A DNA stretch of 64,000 nucleotides from a virus, in the IMG/VR virus record IMGVR_UViG_3300047558_000077, positions 1 through 64,000 of that record. One strand, 5' to 3'. Positions 3,124-20,768 of the stretch are shown one piece after another. The notes under the pieces are model-generated. The model made no database searches. It was not told where the DNA came from and was given only the letters and a program-made list of their open reading frames with translations. Position 1 is the stretch's first letter; each line of letters starts with the position of its first letter. The position numbers were made by a program, and so were the translations under genes.

Positions 3124-3789
3124 ATGACTGTATTTCACAAACACCACATTATACCAAAACATATGGGCGGAACAGATGATCCATCAAATTTGATAGAATT
3201 GACAGTAGAAGAACATGCCGAGGCTCATAGAAAGTTGTGGGAAGAGCATGGAAATGAATATGATAAGATTGCTTGGTTGAGTTTAACAAATCAGATTGAC
3301 AATGCAGAAGCAAGAATACTCGCTGTTATTGAATGGAATAAGAATAGGATCATATCTGATGAAACAAAAGAAAAAATGTCGGAGAGTTTGAAAAAATATT
3401 ATAGTGATCCGGATAACAGAAAGAAAACGTCAGACGCAACTAAAAATGGTATGAAGTCTTGGTGGGATAACTTATTAGAAGATGAAAGACAAGAGTGGAT
3501 TGAGAAGTGTAAAAAACGTCCTGAAGATTGGGTTCCACCTAAAGGATGGAAACTAAGTGAAGAAACCAAACAAAAGATGAAAGGACCGAGAGAACCATAT
3601 GGTCCACAGTCAAAAGAACACCGTAAAAATGTAAGCAAGGGGCGCAAAGGTAAAGGAACAGGCGAAAGAAACGCAATGTCTAATGAAGAAAATAGAAAGA
3701 AAGTTTCTCAATCTAAGATTGGAAGAAAGCGTGTCTATCAACCTGATGGATCGTTCAAGTATCTATTTCCTAGTGAAATAGGAGGTTAA
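3124..3789 (+). mobile_element. Free-standing HNH homing endonuclease with NUMOD3-like repeats
   Basis: HKHHIIPKHMGGTDDPSNLIELTVEEHAEAH nuclease motif and SEETKQKM-type repeats. Inserted between gp13 and gp14. Confidence 0.85.
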
Positions 3790-3790
3790 C

Positions 3791-4681
3791 ATCGCACTGA
3801 ACCGATATTTTCAAAATTTTCCTGGCAAGAATCGCTTTAACAATGAGCATAGACTCATGGAAGATGTTATTGTCGAATCGATTGAGATCATGGGTCATCA
3901 GGTTTATTACATTCCTAGAGAGTCCTTTGATAATGGTGATATGATCTTTGGTGAGTATAGCAAGTCTAAATTTGAAAAGGCTTATTCGATTGAAGCGTAT
4001 ATAGCCAATGTGGAAGGCTTTGAAGGTGATGGTGACTTCTTTTCCAAGTTTGGTCTAGAGATTAGAGATACATCCAACTTTGTAATCTCACGCCGTGCAT
4101 TTACCCGTGGTCTACCATCAGTGTTGAGAGAAAGACCACAAGAAGGCGACTTGATCTACATTCCTTTGATGCATCGTCTATTTGAAATTAAATTTCTTGA
4201 AAAGAAGCTAATGTTCTATGCTCTTGGAAACAGAGAGCCATACATATACGAAATTCGTTGTGAACTATTCCGCTATAGTCAAGAAGCGATTGATACTGGT
4301 GTTGATGAAATTGATCAGATAGAAGAAGATAACGCATACACAATGAGATTAAATCTCAATACATCCGGTCTTGGTAACTTCAAAGACGGTGAAGTTGTTT
4401 ATCAATCTTCTACAGGAAGATGGTCAGAACAATTGGCACATGCTACGGTCGGAGAATGGTATAAAGCTAACGGAACAATGTTTATCTATGGTATTACAGG
4501 TAGCTTTGCAGCAAACACAACACTTTATGGAAATACTTCACTTGCACAATATACAGTCAACAGTATCGCTGACGAAAAGAATGATTACGTTAAGTTTGAC
4601 ATATTTGATAATGAAGATTTTGACACTGGCGCAGATTTGATCCTTGATCTATCTGAAACAAATCCATTCGGGACACCATAA
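3791..4681 (+). CDS. gp14: Neck protein gp14 (probable non-canonical ATC start at 3791; first ATG at 3857)
   Basis: EGFEGDGDFFSKFGLEIRD, RPQEGDLIYIP and LDLSETNPFG motifs. In-frame extension (M)ALNRYFQNF follows SD GGAGG at 3781-3785. Confidence 0.9.
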   Translation: MALNRYFQNFPGKNRFNNEHRLMEDVIVESIEIMGHQVYYIPRESFDNGDMIFGEYSKSKFEKAYSIEAYIANVEGFEGDGDFFSKFGLEIRDTSNFVISRRAFTRGLPSVLRERPQEGDLIYIPLMHRLFEIKFLEKKLMFYALGNREPYIYEIRCELFRYSQEAIDTGVDEIDQIEEDNAYTMRLNLNTSGLGNFKDGEVVYQSSTGRWSEQLAHATVGEWYKANGTMFIYGITGSFAANTTLYGNTSLAQYTVNSIADEKNDYVKFDIFDNEDFDTGADLILDLSETNPFGTP

Positions 4682-11219: not shown

Positions 11220-11241
11220 TAGTTAGACTAAATATAAGATA

Positions 11242-11267
11242 AGTCATGGGGCTTCGGTCCCATGACT
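11242..11267 (+). promoter_or_regulatory. cUUCGg-capped 11-bp hairpin just downstream of late promoter CTAAATA (11228-11234)
   Basis: AGTCATGGGGC-TTCG-GTCCCATGACT. No U-tract, so more likely a 5' stabiliser or processing signal than a terminator. Confidence 0.7.
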
Positions 11268-11294
11268 ATTCATCATGTTCAAGGAGTAGGGACC

Positions 11295-13154
11295 ATTCGC
11301 TTATTCGGCTTTCAAATTGGTGTTGACGACCAAGATAAAAAACCAGATCAATACGGTCAACCAACACAGAAAACATTTGCTATACCGCAGACAGACGACG
11401 GCGCCGTAACTGTTGCTGGCGCTGGCTATTATGGTACCTATGTTGATCTTGATGGTACATTCAGAAACGAAACACAACTTATTACGAAGTATCGTGAGTT
11501 AGCAATTCAGCCAGAAATGGAAACTGCTATTGATGAAATCGTTAATGAAGCTATTGTCATTGAAGATTCCGGCACCTCGGTAGAAATCAACCTAGACGAA
11601 CTTAAAGTTCCAGCAGGAATTAAAAGAAGAATTGAAGATGAGTTTGAACTAATACTAAAGATGCTAAACTTTGGTAATATGGGGCATGATATCTTTAGGC
11701 GCTGGTATATTGATGGAAGACTTTTCTATCACCTTGTTATCGACGAAACACAACCACAATTAGGTATTCAAGAATTAAAGTATATCGATCCTCGCCGTAT
11801 TCGTAAGATCCGTGAAATTCAAAAGATGCGTGATCCTAATACAGGCGTTGAACTAATCAAAAAGACTATTGAGTATTATCTTTACAACGAAAGAGGAATG
11901 ATTGGCTCTGGTACCAATCTAGGCTCTAAGATTGCCGTTGACTCAATTGTAAATGTTAATTCTGGTTTGCTTGATCCTAAGCAGACAATGGTGCTTTCTT
12001 ATCTACACAAAGCAATCAAGCCATTCAACAATCTACGCATGGTCGAAGATGCTACAGTTATCTATCGTCTATCTCGTGCTCCAGAACGCCGAGTTTTCTA
12101 TATTGATGTTGGTAATATGCCAACAGTTAAAGCGGAACAGTATGTCCGTGATATCATGGTCAAGTATCGTAACAAGTTGGTTTACGATTCTAATACTGGT
12201 GAAATCAAAGACGACCGCAAACATCTATCAATGCTGGAAGACTTCTGGTTGCCTCGCCGTGAAGGTTCTAAGGGAACAGAAATTTCTACATTAGAAGGCG
12301 CACGTAATCTAGGTGAACTAGAAGACGTTAAGTATTTCCAAAGCAAGCTATACAAGTCACTAAATGTTCCAATCGGTCGTTTAGAACCACAACAAGGTTT
12401 CTCACTAGGTAGAACAACAGAAATCACAAGAGATGAACTTAAGTTTACTAAGTTTGTCCAAAGACTACGTAACAAGTTTTCATCACTATTTGACGATCTA
12501 CTAAGAGTTCAATTAATTCTTAAGAATGTCTGTACCGAAGAAGAGTGGAAAGAGTTTAAAGAAGATATCTGGTACGACTATAAGAAAGATAATAACTTCG
12601 ATGAACTGAAAGACGCAGAACTATTAAACATGCGTCTAGATGTTCTAGCTAAAGTTGATCCATTCGTCGGTAAGTATTATTCTGTAGCATGGGTTAGAAA
12701 GAACATTCTACAGCAAACCGAAGAAGATATGGAAGAGATTAACGCTCAGATGGAACAAGAGAATGCTATTCTTGCTCAACAGCAACAGCAAGCAATGGTT
12801 GATCAACAAGCACAACAGCAACAGGATATGGAAAATCAGATTGCTTTTGGAGCACAGCAACAGATCGCTCAGGCACAAGTCAATAAAGAAATCGATAAGA
12901 TTACTGGACCGGATGAAGGTCCAGGTAAATCTGAAAAAGCTGGTCAAGATCATGAATCCAAGATGATGGACAAGAAAATCAAACTAGCACAGATACAATC
13001 TAAAAAGTCTGCACCAGCACCAGCAAAGAAAAAGACTGTAGCAGAACAAGCAAAAGATTTAGGTCTAGTTTATGTTGGCTCAAATAGATATGCTGATACA
13101 AGTGGTAATGTAACACATCTTACCGAAAACGGTATATTAGTTCCGACTAAATAA
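11295..13154 (+). CDS. gp20: Portal protein gp20 (probable ATT start at 11295)
   Basis: WYIDGR, YRLSRAPERRVFYIDVGNMP, EDFWLPRREG and ITRDELKF motifs. (M)RLFGFQIG N-terminus follows AAGGAG. Confidence 0.96.
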   Translation: MRLFGFQIGVDDQDKKPDQYGQPTQKTFAIPQTDDGAVTVAGAGYYGTYVDLDGTFRNETQLITKYRELAIQPEMETAIDEIVNEAIVIEDSGTSVEINLDELKVPAGIKRRIEDEFELILKMLNFGNMGHDIFRRWYIDGRLFYHLVIDETQPQLGIQELKYIDPRRIRKIREIQKMRDPNTGVELIKKTIEYYLYNERGMIGSGTNLGSKIAVDSIVNVNSGLLDPKQTMVLSYLHKAIKPFNNLRMVEDATVIYRLSRAPERRVFYIDVGNMPTVKAEQYVRDIMVKYRNKLVYDSNTGEIKDDRKHLSMLEDFWLPRREGSKGTEISTLEGARNLGELEDVKYFQSKLYKSLNVPIGRLEPQQGFSLGRTTEITRDELKFTKFVQRLRNKFSSLFDDLLRVQLILKNVCTEEEWKEFKEDIWYDYKKDNNFDELKDAELLNMRLDVLAKVDPFVGKYYSVAWVRKNILQQTEEDMEEINAQMEQENAILAQQQQQAMVDQQAQQQQDMENQIAFGAQQQIAQAQVNKEIDKITGPDEGPGKSEKAGQDHESKMMDKKIKLAQIQSKKSAPAPAKKKTVAEQAKDLGLVYVGSNRYADTSGNVTHLTENGILVPTK

Positions 13155-13169
13155 TAAAAAGGATTTTAT

Positions 13170-14891
13170 ATGTCACTCAAAAGCGTAAAGACTTTATCAG
13201 CAACACAACTTGCCAAAAAGTGGAATCTTTCACTTGGCGAAGTTGGTAAACTTATTGCACAAGGTGCCGCTGTTGAGAAAGAGCATACTAAGAACGAAAA
13301 AGAAGCAAGAGAAGTTGCTAGAGACCATCTTGCCGAAAGACCAGATTATTATAAGAAACTAAAGAAAGTAGAGAAGTCTCCTATTTCTATGAAAGAAGGA
13401 ATCTCTGCTGGACCTGAAAGAGAAGTAGATCATACTATTGGTGATCTAACAGGTTCATCCAGAAAAGTTATGAAGGTTGATGAAGTAAAGATATCACCAA
13501 AGATTAGAAAAGCGGCTGCTGTTGGTATGACCGCTGCTAACATAGCAACTGGTGCAAGCGTTTATGATAATGCATCAAGAGGTGTAGGAAGTCCTATTAG
13601 AGATATTGCTGCCGCAGCATCTGGATTACCAGGTAAAGTTGGCTATGCTGCTATGGGAACAAACTACACAATCAAAGGTTTTGATAAAGCCAGAGAACAT
13701 CTAAGAGCAAAAATGAAAAAGAAAATAGAAGAAGAACAGATTGACGAAATCTCCGCAGAACTAGTCGGTAAGGTTTCTAATGCTCGTTTTTTTCGTGGTG
13801 AAGCACCAAGCAAGACACTAACTCGTGCTATCAATAAGAAGTTTATTGAATCAGGTAAAAAAGATAAAGGTAAGATAAACAAAGATAAGAAAGAAGTAAA
13901 AGAGGCTGTGATGGCAATGCCTCCACAAGCTCAGCAACCTGCTATTTATGGTTCGCAGCGTGCAGGAGTTCAAAGACAAGTATCAAGACCAACATCTGTG
14001 TCTGGTAGTGCGTCAGGAAGAATCGCTGGTCAGGCAGGATCTATGTCAGCAAAACCAAATGTTAGAGTTTCTTCTGGTGTTCAGCCATCAATTGAAAGAA
14101 CATGGAAAACTCCTGGTAGAGGAACAATGGGAACAAGTGGTGGTTCTATGTCAGCCACTCCAAAAGTTTCTACAGCATATTCACAAGGTGGTGTAAATGT
14201 TGGTAAAGCAATGGGTGCTTCAAAGCAGACTAGTCCTGTTGTAAAGGGTATGACTTCTGCTGGTCGTGAAGCCGCAGCCGCTGTATCTAAAGCAGCACCT
14301 ATGGCATCAAGAGTTGCTGGCGCCGCTCTAAGAGTTGCTGGTGGACCAGCCGCTACTGCCGCTGCCGCTGTAATGTCACCAACACCCGCAGGCGCAGGCG
14401 AAGATGAAAAGAAAAGACAAGCAACACTAAAGGATTATAATCCATACAAGCCATCTGGTCGTTCTGTTGCTGATTATGAAAAGCAAGCACTAACACCACA
14501 AAAATATGACAAGCCAAAAGCACCAGAAACACCTAAAGTTGATGCTCCTCAACCACCAAGTCGTCCTGAATACTTCACAAGAGGACAGGCATTTCAGGCT
14601 GCTCGTGGCGAAGCAGGTGGAGCAGGCGCCAAGTTTTCTTATGGTGGTAAAGAGTATCAGACAAATGTTGCTGGTGAGAAGTATGCTTCTAAACCAAAAC
14701 AAACAAGCGTAACAGATATAAAGGAAACAACTATGGATACCAAAGACCTTATCAACGAGGCACTAGATGATATTCTAGAAAACAATCTAGGTAGTATGAA
14801 AGAAAACTTTATGCTTGCTCTACAAGAGAAGGCTGTTGAAAAGCTAGAAGAACGTAAGAAAGAAATCGCTTCTAACTATTTTGCTGAATAA
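13170..14891 (+). CDS. Large basic low-complexity internal head protein ending in a gp67-like prohead-core module
   Basis: Lies between portal and gp21. EKEHT...ARDHLAERPDYYKKL domain. The C-terminal 52 aa (MDTKDLINEAL...LEERKKEIASNYF) resembles the small prohead core protein. Confidence 0.6.
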   Translation: MSLKSVKTLSATQLAKKWNLSLGEVGKLIAQGAAVEKEHTKNEKEAREVARDHLAERPDYYKKLKKVEKSPISMKEGISAGPEREVDHTIGDLTGSSRKVMKVDEVKISPKIRKAAAVGMTAANIATGASVYDNASRGVGSPIRDIAAAASGLPGKVGYAAMGTNYTIKGFDKAREHLRAKMKKKIEEEQIDEISAELVGKVSNARFFRGEAPSKTLTRAINKKFIESGKKDKGKINKDKKEVKEAVMAMPPQAQQPAIYGSQRAGVQRQVSRPTSVSGSASGRIAGQAGSMSAKPNVRVSSGVQPSIERTWKTPGRGTMGTSGGSMSATPKVSTAYSQGGVNVGKAMGASKQTSPVVKGMTSAGREAAAAVSKAAPMASRVAGAALRVAGGPAATAAAAVMSPTPAGAGEDEKKRQATLKDYNPYKPSGRSVADYEKQALTPQKYDKPKAPETPKVDAPQPPSRPEYFTRGQAFQAARGEAGGAGAKFSYGGKEYQTNVAGEKYASKPKQTSVTDIKETTMDTKDLINEALDDILENNLGSMKENFMLALQEKAVEKLEERKKEIASNYFAE

Positions 14892-14901
14892 GGATTAGAT
14901 T

Positions 14902-16182
14902 ATGAAGACCGTCAAGCAGATCAAAGAAGAATATGATAATATTTATTTGGAGCAGACAGCTCCAGATAAACTCATGCTTGAAGGTCGTGAAAGTGCAGTG
15001 AAACCTTCGCCAAGAACTGTTCCTTCTGTTAGTGAAATGCCTAACATGCTTCTCTTTAGAAGAGTTGCATATAGACTGTATCCTAATAAACAAGTAGTGG
15101 CTCTTTACTATTCAAAGACAGTAGATAAATATCTATCAGTTCCTTTTGGTCCAGATGGCAATCTAAATCTTAGTGAGTCAGAAATACATGAAGGTGCATT
15201 AAAGACAGCCGCTAAAACCGTTGCTGGCGGTGTATCTGGTGCCATTCATGGAGGCATAAGAGGATTTGCAAGAGGAGTTTCTGTTGGTCTATTACCCGGA
15301 GCTACAGCAGGTGGTGTAGTAGGAGCAACAATCGGCGCATATAAAGGTGCAAAGAAGGCATATGATAAAGCAAAGGATAAAGATGTGAATGAAGATTGGC
15401 AGAGTGTAAATCGTAAAGATAAAACAGACGGTCTTTCACAGGCCGCTGTAAACGCATATCGTCGTGAAAATCCTGGTTCTAAGTTACAGACAGCCGTAAC
15501 AGAAAAGAATCCAAAGGGCAAAAGAGCAGCCCGTCGTAAGTCATTCTGTTCTCGCATGGGTGGAATGAAAAAGCGTTTAACATCTGCCAAGACAGCAAGA
15601 GATCCAGATTCACGCATCAATAAGGCACTACGCCGTTGGAACTGTGAGGAATCATTCCAAGCTAAACTAGCTGAAAAGCGTCAACAAAGACTTGAAGAAA
15701 ATCCTTTACTAAAAAGTCTGGGCTCTTTAGCTTTAAAGAAGACTTTTGATTATTTTACTAAAGGCGATAATAAAGATAATAAAGCAAAAGAAAATCAGCC
15801 ATCTGATACTATTGTAACTCGTAAGGCATCGTTGGTAAAAGATAAACCCGGAGCAAGAACCAAGAGTTCATGGGAGAGAGCTAAATCAACCGACGCAACT
15901 TTTCAGGCAAGACAAAAAGCAGCCTTAAGTAAAGAATTAAGTTCATCTCAGAAAGTTCAAGAGAATAAAATTTCCGATATACAAAACATGATTGATGAAG
16001 GATTCGATACAATGAATCTTTCCATCAACGGAAGAACTGTTACACTAAATAGTAGTATGGCAAAAAAGATTATAAGAGTTTATGAGTCCGTTAATACTAA
16101 GAACAAGAAGATTGTTGAGAGTATGTTAAACGAAGACCTAGACTCTTTCAAGAAACTACTAAACTTTTCAATAAAGGCATAA
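14902..16182 (+). CDS. Modular internal head protein containing a DUF6321-like basic domain
   Basis: GLSQAAVNAYRRENPGSKLQTAVT...RRKSFCSRM...SRINKALRRWNC module; position in the head module. Confidence 0.6.
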   Translation: MKTVKQIKEEYDNIYLEQTAPDKLMLEGRESAVKPSPRTVPSVSEMPNMLLFRRVAYRLYPNKQVVALYYSKTVDKYLSVPFGPDGNLNLSESEIHEGALKTAAKTVAGGVSGAIHGGIRGFARGVSVGLLPGATAGGVVGATIGAYKGAKKAYDKAKDKDVNEDWQSVNRKDKTDGLSQAAVNAYRRENPGSKLQTAVTEKNPKGKRAARRKSFCSRMGGMKKRLTSAKTARDPDSRINKALRRWNCEESFQAKLAEKRQQRLEENPLLKSLGSLALKKTFDYFTKGDNKDNKAKENQPSDTIVTRKASLVKDKPGARTKSSWERAKSTDATFQARQKAALSKELSSSQKVQENKISDIQNMIDEGFDTMNLSINGRTVTLNSSMAKKIIRVYESVNTKNKKIVESMLNEDLDSFKKLLNFSIKA

Positions 16183-16185
16183 TAA

Positions 16186-16674
16186 ATGGCAACTACTCTA
16201 ACAACACAAACATTGGTTGATACCAATCGTCATTCGGTCATCAAGATTGTTGGCTCTGGTGGCGGTGATGCTAATACATTACTAGTTAAAGCATCCGATC
16301 TAGCCTATGCTATCAATGCTACTGGTGTTGTTAGCACAACTAATCCAAAGCGTCTTAATAGAGTTGCTATTAAGCGTGTATGGGGACAGGGTCAGATCGC
16401 AGGTGATAAAGCCGTAACTCTACAATGGGGCGGCAATACAAATACAGCTATTGTTACATTTGGTTCTGGCTCATTCGACTATAACTTTGATAGTAGTGCA
16501 ACACAAGGAACAATTGAGATTCCTGATCAAGCAAATTGCACAGGTGATATTGTGTTCACAAGCACCGCAACAACCGGTGATAACTGGACATTGTTTATCG
16601 ATCTAAAGAAAGACGGACGAGACTATGATCAAGGTCAAGCTCGTGATCCTCTAGCATTTAATAACGGAATCTAA
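16186..16674 (+). CDS. Hypothetical head-module structural protein
   Basis: 162 aa, beta-rich ORF in the head gene cluster. Confidence 0.5.
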   Translation: MATTLTTQTLVDTNRHSVIKIVGSGGGDANTLLVKASDLAYAINATGVVSTTNPKRLNRVAIKRVWGQGQIAGDKAVTLQWGGNTNTAIVTFGSGSFDYNFDSSATQGTIEIPDQANCTGDIVFTSTATTGDNWTLFIDLKKDGRDYDQGQARDPLAFNNGI

Positions 16675-16675
16675 C

Positions 16676-17191
16676 ATGTCAAGACAACTAATCGAATCCA
16701 TTGTATCAGGTAATATGCTAGAAGCAAGTGATATGCTTGAAGCAAAGTTAAACGAAATTCGTGAACGCAAGATGTATGAAATGAAACGCATGTATGCTGC
16801 CGAAGCATTTGGTGGTATGTCAAAAGCAGAAATCGAAGCTAAGAAAAAAGCTGGATATAGAAAGGCCGCTGACGTTCTTAAAGATCCTAGAGAAAGAAAA
16901 CTTCCACCCCTTCCCGATATGAAAAAAGAAAAGAAGATATCAGAGAGTTGGGCAAGAGCAATAAAGATGGGTATCAAAAGAACAGGAACCCGATTGAATG
17001 TAATGCGTCATATCCCAGGCGCAATGAAAGACATAGCTGTAGATGCTGCTAAAAGTGCTGTTGCTGATCCATTAGATACAGCAAGTAAAGTTACCAAAGC
17101 AACAGGTGGTGCCGCAGTAAGAGCAGTTAAAAAAGCCGGCGATGCACCTGTATTCAGTGATCTCAAATCCATCGGAATGCGAAATATATAA
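16676..17191 (+). CDS. Prohead core-like protein (gp67/gp68 region) with basic C-terminus
   Basis: N-terminal LIESIVSGNMLEA...KLNEIRERK resembles the core module at 14733; immediately upstream of gp21. Confidence 0.5.
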   Translation: MSRQLIESIVSGNMLEASDMLEAKLNEIRERKMYEMKRMYAAEAFGGMSKAEIEAKKKAGYRKAADVLKDPRERKLPPLPDMKKEKKISESWARAIKMGIKRTGTRLNVMRHIPGAMKDIAVDAAKSAVADPLDTASKVTKATGGAAVRAVKKAGDAPVFSDLKSIGMRNI

Positions 17192-20688: not shown

Positions 20689-20710
20689 GAGATAGGTGCG
20701 ATTAAACTAA

Positions 20711-20739
20711 AGGCGGGGGCTTCGGCTCCCGCTTTTTTT
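20711..20739 (+). terminator. Rho-independent terminator after gp23
   Basis: GGCGGGGGC-TTCG-GCTCCCGCT followed by a T-run. Confidence 0.9.
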
Positions 20740-20768
20740 ATGGGCTAAATACTGCATGGAGGTCCGTC

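Follow-up and report, generated by a model that had tools for sequence, protein, structure and literature searches.

Where does translation of the portal gene begin in an uncultured freshwater T4-like phage whose portal reading frame offers an ATG with no apparent ribosome-binding site? The DNA analysed here, called the window below, is a stretch of 64,000 nucleotides (positions 1 to 64,000) of the 172-kb IMG/VR virus record IMGVR_UViG_3300047558_000077, with genes in T4-like order. The portal protein gp20 matches Portal_T4 (PF07230) with 586.1 bits (cut-off 22.9) over profile positions 2-433 of 433, and its closest cultured relatives are the portals of Pelagibacter phage Mosig and cyanomyoviruses (~53-55% identity in the N-terminal 330 residues). 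An open reading frame (ORF) caller starts the gene at ATG 11262. No Shine-Dalgarno (SD)-like run was found upstream of this ATG, and its three bases (11262-11264) are part of the 3' arm of a cUUCGg hairpin with 11 base pairs. Further downstream, AAGGAG (11281-11286) stands 8 nt before an in-frame ATT at 11295. An earlier note on this DNA described all of these elements correctly and proposed the ATT as the start. Comparison with related phages strongly supports that proposal, and gp20 translation very probably starts at ATT 11295.

We compared the portal with 80 IMG/VR portal loci by tblastn. Homology always begins at residues 11-14 of the ATG-called protein, and the relatives have the N-terminus M(A)(x)xLFGF, which the product read from ATT, (M)RLFGFQIG, fits. 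In the alignment, ATT 11295 falls on the Met of relatives that start at ATG, or 1-3 codons past it, and it coincides with the TTG of one locus (L003). A pattern scan in which the start codon was left free (AAGGAGTAGGGACC NNN CGN TTN TTY GG) returned 14 IMG/VR contigs from 13 metagenomes, with ATT in 14/14. A degenerate pattern scan of metagenomes was too loose, with portals in only 5 of 120 loci; it gave four further contigs, all with ATT, including the closest relative, L145, on a 175-kb contig with 93% identity over 435 aligned portal columns. L145 has a different spacer (TAACGACC) and the hairpin loop UACG, and keeps the ATT. The 18 related contigs, from at least 13 metagenomes, represent five further haplotypes (six with the window), and in all of them an AUU, AUC or AUA (AUH) codon, namely ATT, is kept at the position of the initiator Met. 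The five haplotypes with full-length genes show 85-93% protein identity, and 27-41% of their conserved-residue codons differ.

The sequence around the ATT argues that coding begins there. In four haplotypes an in-frame TAA, created by the T of TTTAAGGAG, stands four codons before ATT, with no near-cognate start among the four codons between them (GGA GTA GGG ACC). In L145 the hairpin ATG is out of frame owing to a 1-nt indel. The alignment contains four 1-nt indels between the hairpin and the SD; past ATT the differences are confined to third positions and one 3-nt indel. Because the frame is broken upstream and the sequence downstream evolves in the manner of coding sequence, coding would begin at ATT. 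The start annotated by the ORF caller, which would extend the protein by the 11 residues MTIHHVQGVGT, is very unlikely. Its ATG shares the portal frame, which is open from 11238, just after the last upstream stop, TAA 11235-11237. However, the hairpin ATG is both in frame and open only in the window; in all five related haplotypes it is cut off by the TAA or out of frame, the segment from it to the SD carries the 1-nt indels, and the extension has homology in no homolog. The ATG, without an SD, is also paired within a hairpin of -19.4 kcal/mol. No canonical start explains the conserved N-terminus, the one in-frame ATG of the window being unconserved.

A second alternative is that translation starts at the first downstream canonical codon, ~74 codons past ATT, giving a shorter portal with the preceding region untranslated. 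The next ATG, GTG or TTG lies 67-74 codons downstream of ATT, inside conserved coding sequence. It is the first canonical codon available in four haplotypes, where a gene finder restricted to these three codons would have to choose it. The 74 codons after ATT nevertheless change as coding sequence does, the protein is conserved across the 80 loci beginning at the LFGF motif, and no SD was seen for the downstream start, all of which makes this alternative extremely unlikely. An assembly or sequencing error for ATG deserves even less credit. Although the genome was assembled from a metagenome and the two codons are one base apart, the same ATT occurs in the 18 independently assembled contigs, whose five haplotypes differ at many other sites; the earlier note had likewise judged an error unlikely.

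Ribosomes might also load at a mini-ORF upstream of the portal frame. Between the hairpin and the SD lies the element TTCATCATGTT, which occurs once in the genome and is identical in the six haplotypes despite 1-nt indels in its flanks. It carries the ATG of a mini-ORF, ATG TTC AAG GAG TAG (11275-11289), that overlaps the SD and would encode MFKE* in the window and MF* in L082, its frame and length varying among haplotypes. In every haplotype ATG 11275 opens a mini-ORF of 2 or 4 codons that stops in or just after the SD. Loading at this ATG or at the hairpin ATG could be followed by frameshifting or readthrough, or by reinitiation at AUU after the TAA or TAG beside the SD, and initiation at the natural infC junction, UAA GGU AUU, is partly reinitiation (PMC3592434). 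We give these routes a very low probability. Neither upstream ATG (11262, 11275) has an SD, and the position of both relative to the portal frame varies by haplotype (in frame with a stop, +1, or fused), so that no single recoding event fits all; frameshifting or readthrough was rejected on these differences in frame. The reinitiation variant would still start at AUU 11295 and would modify, not replace, direct initiation at that codon.

Several points weigh against the ATT start. The evidence for it is comparative throughout. AAGGAG is not enriched across the window (28 observed vs 31 expected), and SD + AUH pairs are found inside long ORFs too; because of the missing enrichment, the combination of SD and ATT would by itself say little, and the comparative data carry the case. 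We had considered the invariant third base of the ATT as a sign of constraint and dropped it, since the invariance is not significant: a single codon is likewise kept in 15 of 34 conserved Ile columns. In the window the open, in-frame ATG 11262 may also give a minor isoform longer by 11 residues. Among 183 long ORFs, gp20 and gp14 are the only two whose first canonical start is without an SD while a strong SD precedes an AUH codon with no canonical start adjacent to it. The 8-nt spacer of gp20 is a functional spacing, falling inside the range of 4-10 nt by which AAGGAG precedes canonical starts in this genome, and the SD/ATT stretch has structure no stronger than shuffles (z = 0.22). The N-terminal peptide of a portal started at ATT would be (M)RLFGFQIGVDDQDK; the peptide MTIHHVQGVGTIR would be at odds with ATT as the sole start.

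Ordinary near-cognate initiation is the best-supported reading of the gp20 start. The strong SD would select AUU 11295 by placing it in the P site, where the initiator fMet-tRNA would pair with a third-position mismatch and read the codon as Met, giving the product MRLFGFQIG... of 619 aa. The ATG at 11262 would then be an accidental in-frame triplet within the conserved leader hairpin and not a start. A phage initiator tRNA that reads AUU or AUC was rejected: among the 24 tRNAs found by Aragorn, both tRNA-Ile(GAU) and tRNA-Met(CAU) are paired at 1:72 and are without the three anticodon-stem G-C pairs. No gene for initiation factor 3 (IF3) or IF1 was found in the phage, and control genomes were positive. 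Separately, outside the window, at 75119-83779 and 125940-126300, Aragorn finds the 24 clustered tRNA genes and a permuted (two-piece) transfer-messenger RNA with the tag AANDNVPFDYALAA.

Attenuation of a low-copy protein is a plausible purpose of the ATT. The portal is present in 12 copies per virion. A near-cognate codon behind a strong SD would give a low, fixed initiation rate, ~1/10 to 1/6 of that of AUG by reporter studies, and such a rate would keep the portal scarce compared with the proteins of sheath, tube, scaffold and capsid, which come from the same late transcripts. As the earlier note stated, the high-copy genes gp18, gp19, gp22 and gp23 use ATG with good SDs, in gp22 as AAGGAG, 10 nt and ATG and in gp23 as AAGGA, 8 nt and ATG. 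The note went on to propose that AUH codons in gp20 and gp14 together set virion stoichiometry. This proposal is plausible for gp20 alone, since attenuation fits the recurrence of weak gp20 starts against a gp19 that begins with ATG in 70/70 loci. As a strategy shared with gp14 it is weakened: the AUH start of gp14 is linked to an endonuclease gene, five contigs have one AUH start and not the other, and the low-copy neck and tail genes gp13 and gp15 both start at ATG, by which scarcity through weak starts is no general rule in this phage.

Weak starts recur among portal genes. Outside the ATT clade, gp20 starts with ATG at 64 of 74 loci, GTG at seven and TTG at one, and a second clade uses ATC. 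The ATC clade (L019, at 1495-1500, and L258-L261; four metagenomes) is separate and reads ATC GCA ATC AAA where its sisters read ATG GCA ATC AAA; it has a TGA four codons upstream and GAGAGG as its SD, and no canonical start follows until +68. L003 (around 1412) belongs to the lineage that is sister to the ATT clade and carries TTG in precisely the position of the ATT (TTG CGA TTT TTT GGA). The different weak starts of these sister lineages suggest two separate steps away from ATG. In a quick maximum-likelihood run of IQ-TREE, the ATT clade and L003 group together with 100% support, and the ATC clade stands apart among ATG and GTG lineages. The tree needs at least 6-7 departures from ATG, all within one half. 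Non-ATG starts occur at 10/74 loci in gp20 vs 0/70 in gp19 (Fisher p = 0.0015, a statistic that ignores shared ancestry), and the SD match is longer at the non-ATG gp20 starts, with a mean of 5.3 vs 4.3 nt (p = 2e-4, which likewise ignores shared ancestry). Attenuation as the purpose has a counterargument of its own. A rough start-picker places GTG or TTG at 38 of 183 ORFs of this genome, which is probably an overestimate, and by this measure a share of ~13% weak starts in gp20 may reflect mere relaxed selection, gp19 being the exception that is under constraint.

The near-cognate start that the earlier note had also assigned to gp14 is real as judged from its relatives, at ATC 3791. AGGAGG stands 5 nt upstream of this codon, which is followed by 22 conserved codons before the first ATG. 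The relatives begin M-A-[ILV]-N-R-Y-F at the codon aligned with the ATC, and the version of gp14 that starts at ATG 3857 matches its PHROG profile only from profile position 32. Its history appears to differ from that of gp20. A survey of ortholog start codons found that gp20 keeps ATT within its clade, whereas gp14 has ATG in all relatives in which gp13 directly abuts gp14 with a TAATG overlap. In gp14, ATC or ATT is confined to loci with a present or past endonuclease gene insertion between gp13 and gp14: the window, L096-L098 and L100-L101 have an HNH gene, L128 has an unrelated GIY-YIG-like gene, and L127 has a remnant of the latter. Other inserted ORFs upstream of gp14, which also look GIY-YIG-like, accompany ATG in L114 and L121 and GTG in L135, and the link between endonuclease and AUH start is therefore an association, not a rule. 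The profile scan of the inserts covered only the HNH gene of the window; the types in L128, L114/L121 and L135 were judged by eye, each from its N-terminal motif. Five contigs (L084/L102, L083/L104, L088/L106, L094/L108, L095/L109) have ATT in gp20 and ATG in gp14, showing that the two AUH starts are uncoupled and have separate histories.

Homing endonucleases that target the gp13/gp14 junction may have left the gp14 ATC/ATT start behind as a scar or an immunity allele. The endonuclease-free junction reads …GGCTAATGGCA…, and the endonuclease-bearing allele TAACATC. If this explanation is true, an essential gene is having its start codon degraded by the invasion of a selfish gene, while the 3' end of the endonuclease gene provides a strong SD. 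The junction (window 3124-3793; L096-L137) is an apparent hotspot of homing endonucleases, at which up to four different ORFs are inserted among the relatives. HNH-type and L128-type junctions both read TAAC-ATY, with the strong SD formed by the last codons of the endonuclease gene. In the first codons of gp14, the endonuclease-bearing alleles share FQNF where the others have FNNF, a pattern suggestive of a co-conversion or immunity tract.

Known AUU-initiated genes offer a precedent for gp20. The E. coli genes infC (IF3) and pcnB (poly(A) polymerase I) keep AUU among orthologs, encode proteins of low need, and have an output several-fold below that of AUG (PMC3592434, which cites Binns and Masters 2002 for pcnB); AUU reporters in E. 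coli yield 6-8 times less than AUG (PMC3592434). The AUU of gp20 is similarly conserved. Unlike infC and pcnB, gp20 is a phage structural gene on late transcripts, and no autoregulatory loop is known for it or implied, since the phage has no IF3 or IF1 gene. In S. aureus, cvfC1 (AUU), ccpN (AUA) and infC (AUA) combine a weak start with a strong, well-spaced SD, the two being conserved jointly, and AUU or AUA yields ~10% of AUG, always behind extended SDs (PMC13009471). The non-ATG gp20 loci likewise have longer SDs. The S. aureus starts were mapped by Ribo-RET and reporters, whereas the evidence for the gp20 start is comparative. With T4 gp20 the gene shares the family PF07230, the gp18-gp19-gp20 order and a late-promoter-like motif upstream. 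Unlike relatives outside the clade, which use ATG, GTG or TTG, this gp20 clade uses ATT and a second clade ATC. A literature search for an ATT-started phage portal found nothing, and a paper on pmoC-phages does not mention start codons (PMC7674155).

The leader of gp20 (Table 1) contains two further elements upstream of the SD. CTAAATA just 3' of gp19 is a candidate late promoter: genome-wide the motif occurs 30 times on the + strand vs 3 on the - strand, 21 of the 30 copies lie 90 nt or less upstream of an ORF start, and the relatives have ATAAATA or TATAAATA at this position. In these sequences the hairpin follows the motif by 7-9 nt. The hairpin has a z-score of -6.1, and an equally good fold appeared in 0 of 200 shuffles. 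It is kept in 6/6 haplotypes, in which the loop is UUCG or UACG and the stem shows a single compensatory change, from T:A to C:G, and a single change from G:U to G:C. By analogy with T4 late promoters, transcripts would begin just upstream of the hairpin, which is likely a 5'-terminal leader structure and not a terminator. We considered it as the intrinsic terminator of gp19 and disfavoured this role, because it is without a U-run and lies downstream of the promoter motif. After the capsid gene (20709-20751), a 12-bp cUUCGg hairpin with a U-run (terminator-like, 20709-20736) precedes CTAAATA at 20745, an order opposite to that of the gp20 leader, which also argues against the gp20 hairpin being a terminator.

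Table 1. Features of the window around the portal gene, in order of position
Feature	Coordinates	Strand	Remarks
gp13	start 2308		ATG start
HNH homing endonuclease gene	3124..3789	+	between gp13 and gp14; phrog_655 and Pfam HNH matches
gp14 initiation region	3780..3793	+	SD AGGAGG 3780-3785; endonuclease stop TAA 3787-3789; ATC 3791-3793
gp14	start 3791		between HNH gene and gp15; ATC start
gp15	start 4681		ATG start
Terminase subunits	starts 6668 and 7131
Sheath gp18	start 8889		AAGGAG, 6 nt, ATG
Tube gp19	start 10662		AAGGAG, 9 nt, ATG; stop TAA 11217-11219
CTAAATA, T4-type late-promoter-like motif	11228..11234	+	just 3' of gp19 stop
11-bp hairpin, cUUCGg tetraloop	11242..11267	+	loop UUCG 11253-11256
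TTCATCATGTT, invariant spacer element	11269..11279	+	between hairpin and SD
SD AAGGAG of gp20	11281..11286	+	8-nt spacer to ATT; invariant in all relatives of the clade
ATT, probable initiation codon of gp20	11295..11297	+	in frame, conserved
gp20 portal coding sequence, as read from ATT	11295..13154	+	619 aa plus stop
Protease	start 17213
Scaffold	start 17896
Major capsid protein	start 19321

Between the portal and the prohead protease (13170-17191) there are four ORFs of 573, 426, 162 and 171 aa without a functionally annotated PHROG match. The first has CTAAATA upstream at 13147, and the second contains a ~95-residue domain common to several PHROGs of unknown function.

The start codon matters for annotation, as environmental surveys use the portal gene (g20) as a standard marker of T4-like phages. 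If a gene finder accepts only ATG, GTG and TTG, it places the portal start 67-74 codons late in four of the five related haplotypes, losing the conserved N-terminus; in the window it starts the portal 11 residues early, and gp14 loses 22 residues. A broader proposal, which we consider doubtful, is that weak-codon initiation of the portal is a recurrently selected control point in T4-like phages and not neutral drift, tying capsid initiation to host physiology; the reading of the gp14 start as an endonuclease scar or immunity allele is separate and equally doubtful. If portal initiation were such a control point, several lineages would independently have swapped ATG for ATT, ATC, GTG or TTG while strengthening the SD, and the number of prohead initiation complexes could depend on host initiation fidelity (IF3, ppGpp, temperature). 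What was seen at gp14 points to another, so far unreported, way in which near-cognate starts may arise. For gp20, an essential structural phage gene has kept AUU through substantial divergence, and a second lineage has reached AUC independently. Initiation at AUU is a rare but known way of limiting protein output that gene finders miss, and its retention here, together with the independent AUC, supports the idea that the choice of start codon helps to determine how much of the low-copy virion proteins is made, relative to the high-copy ones, from late transcripts that they share.

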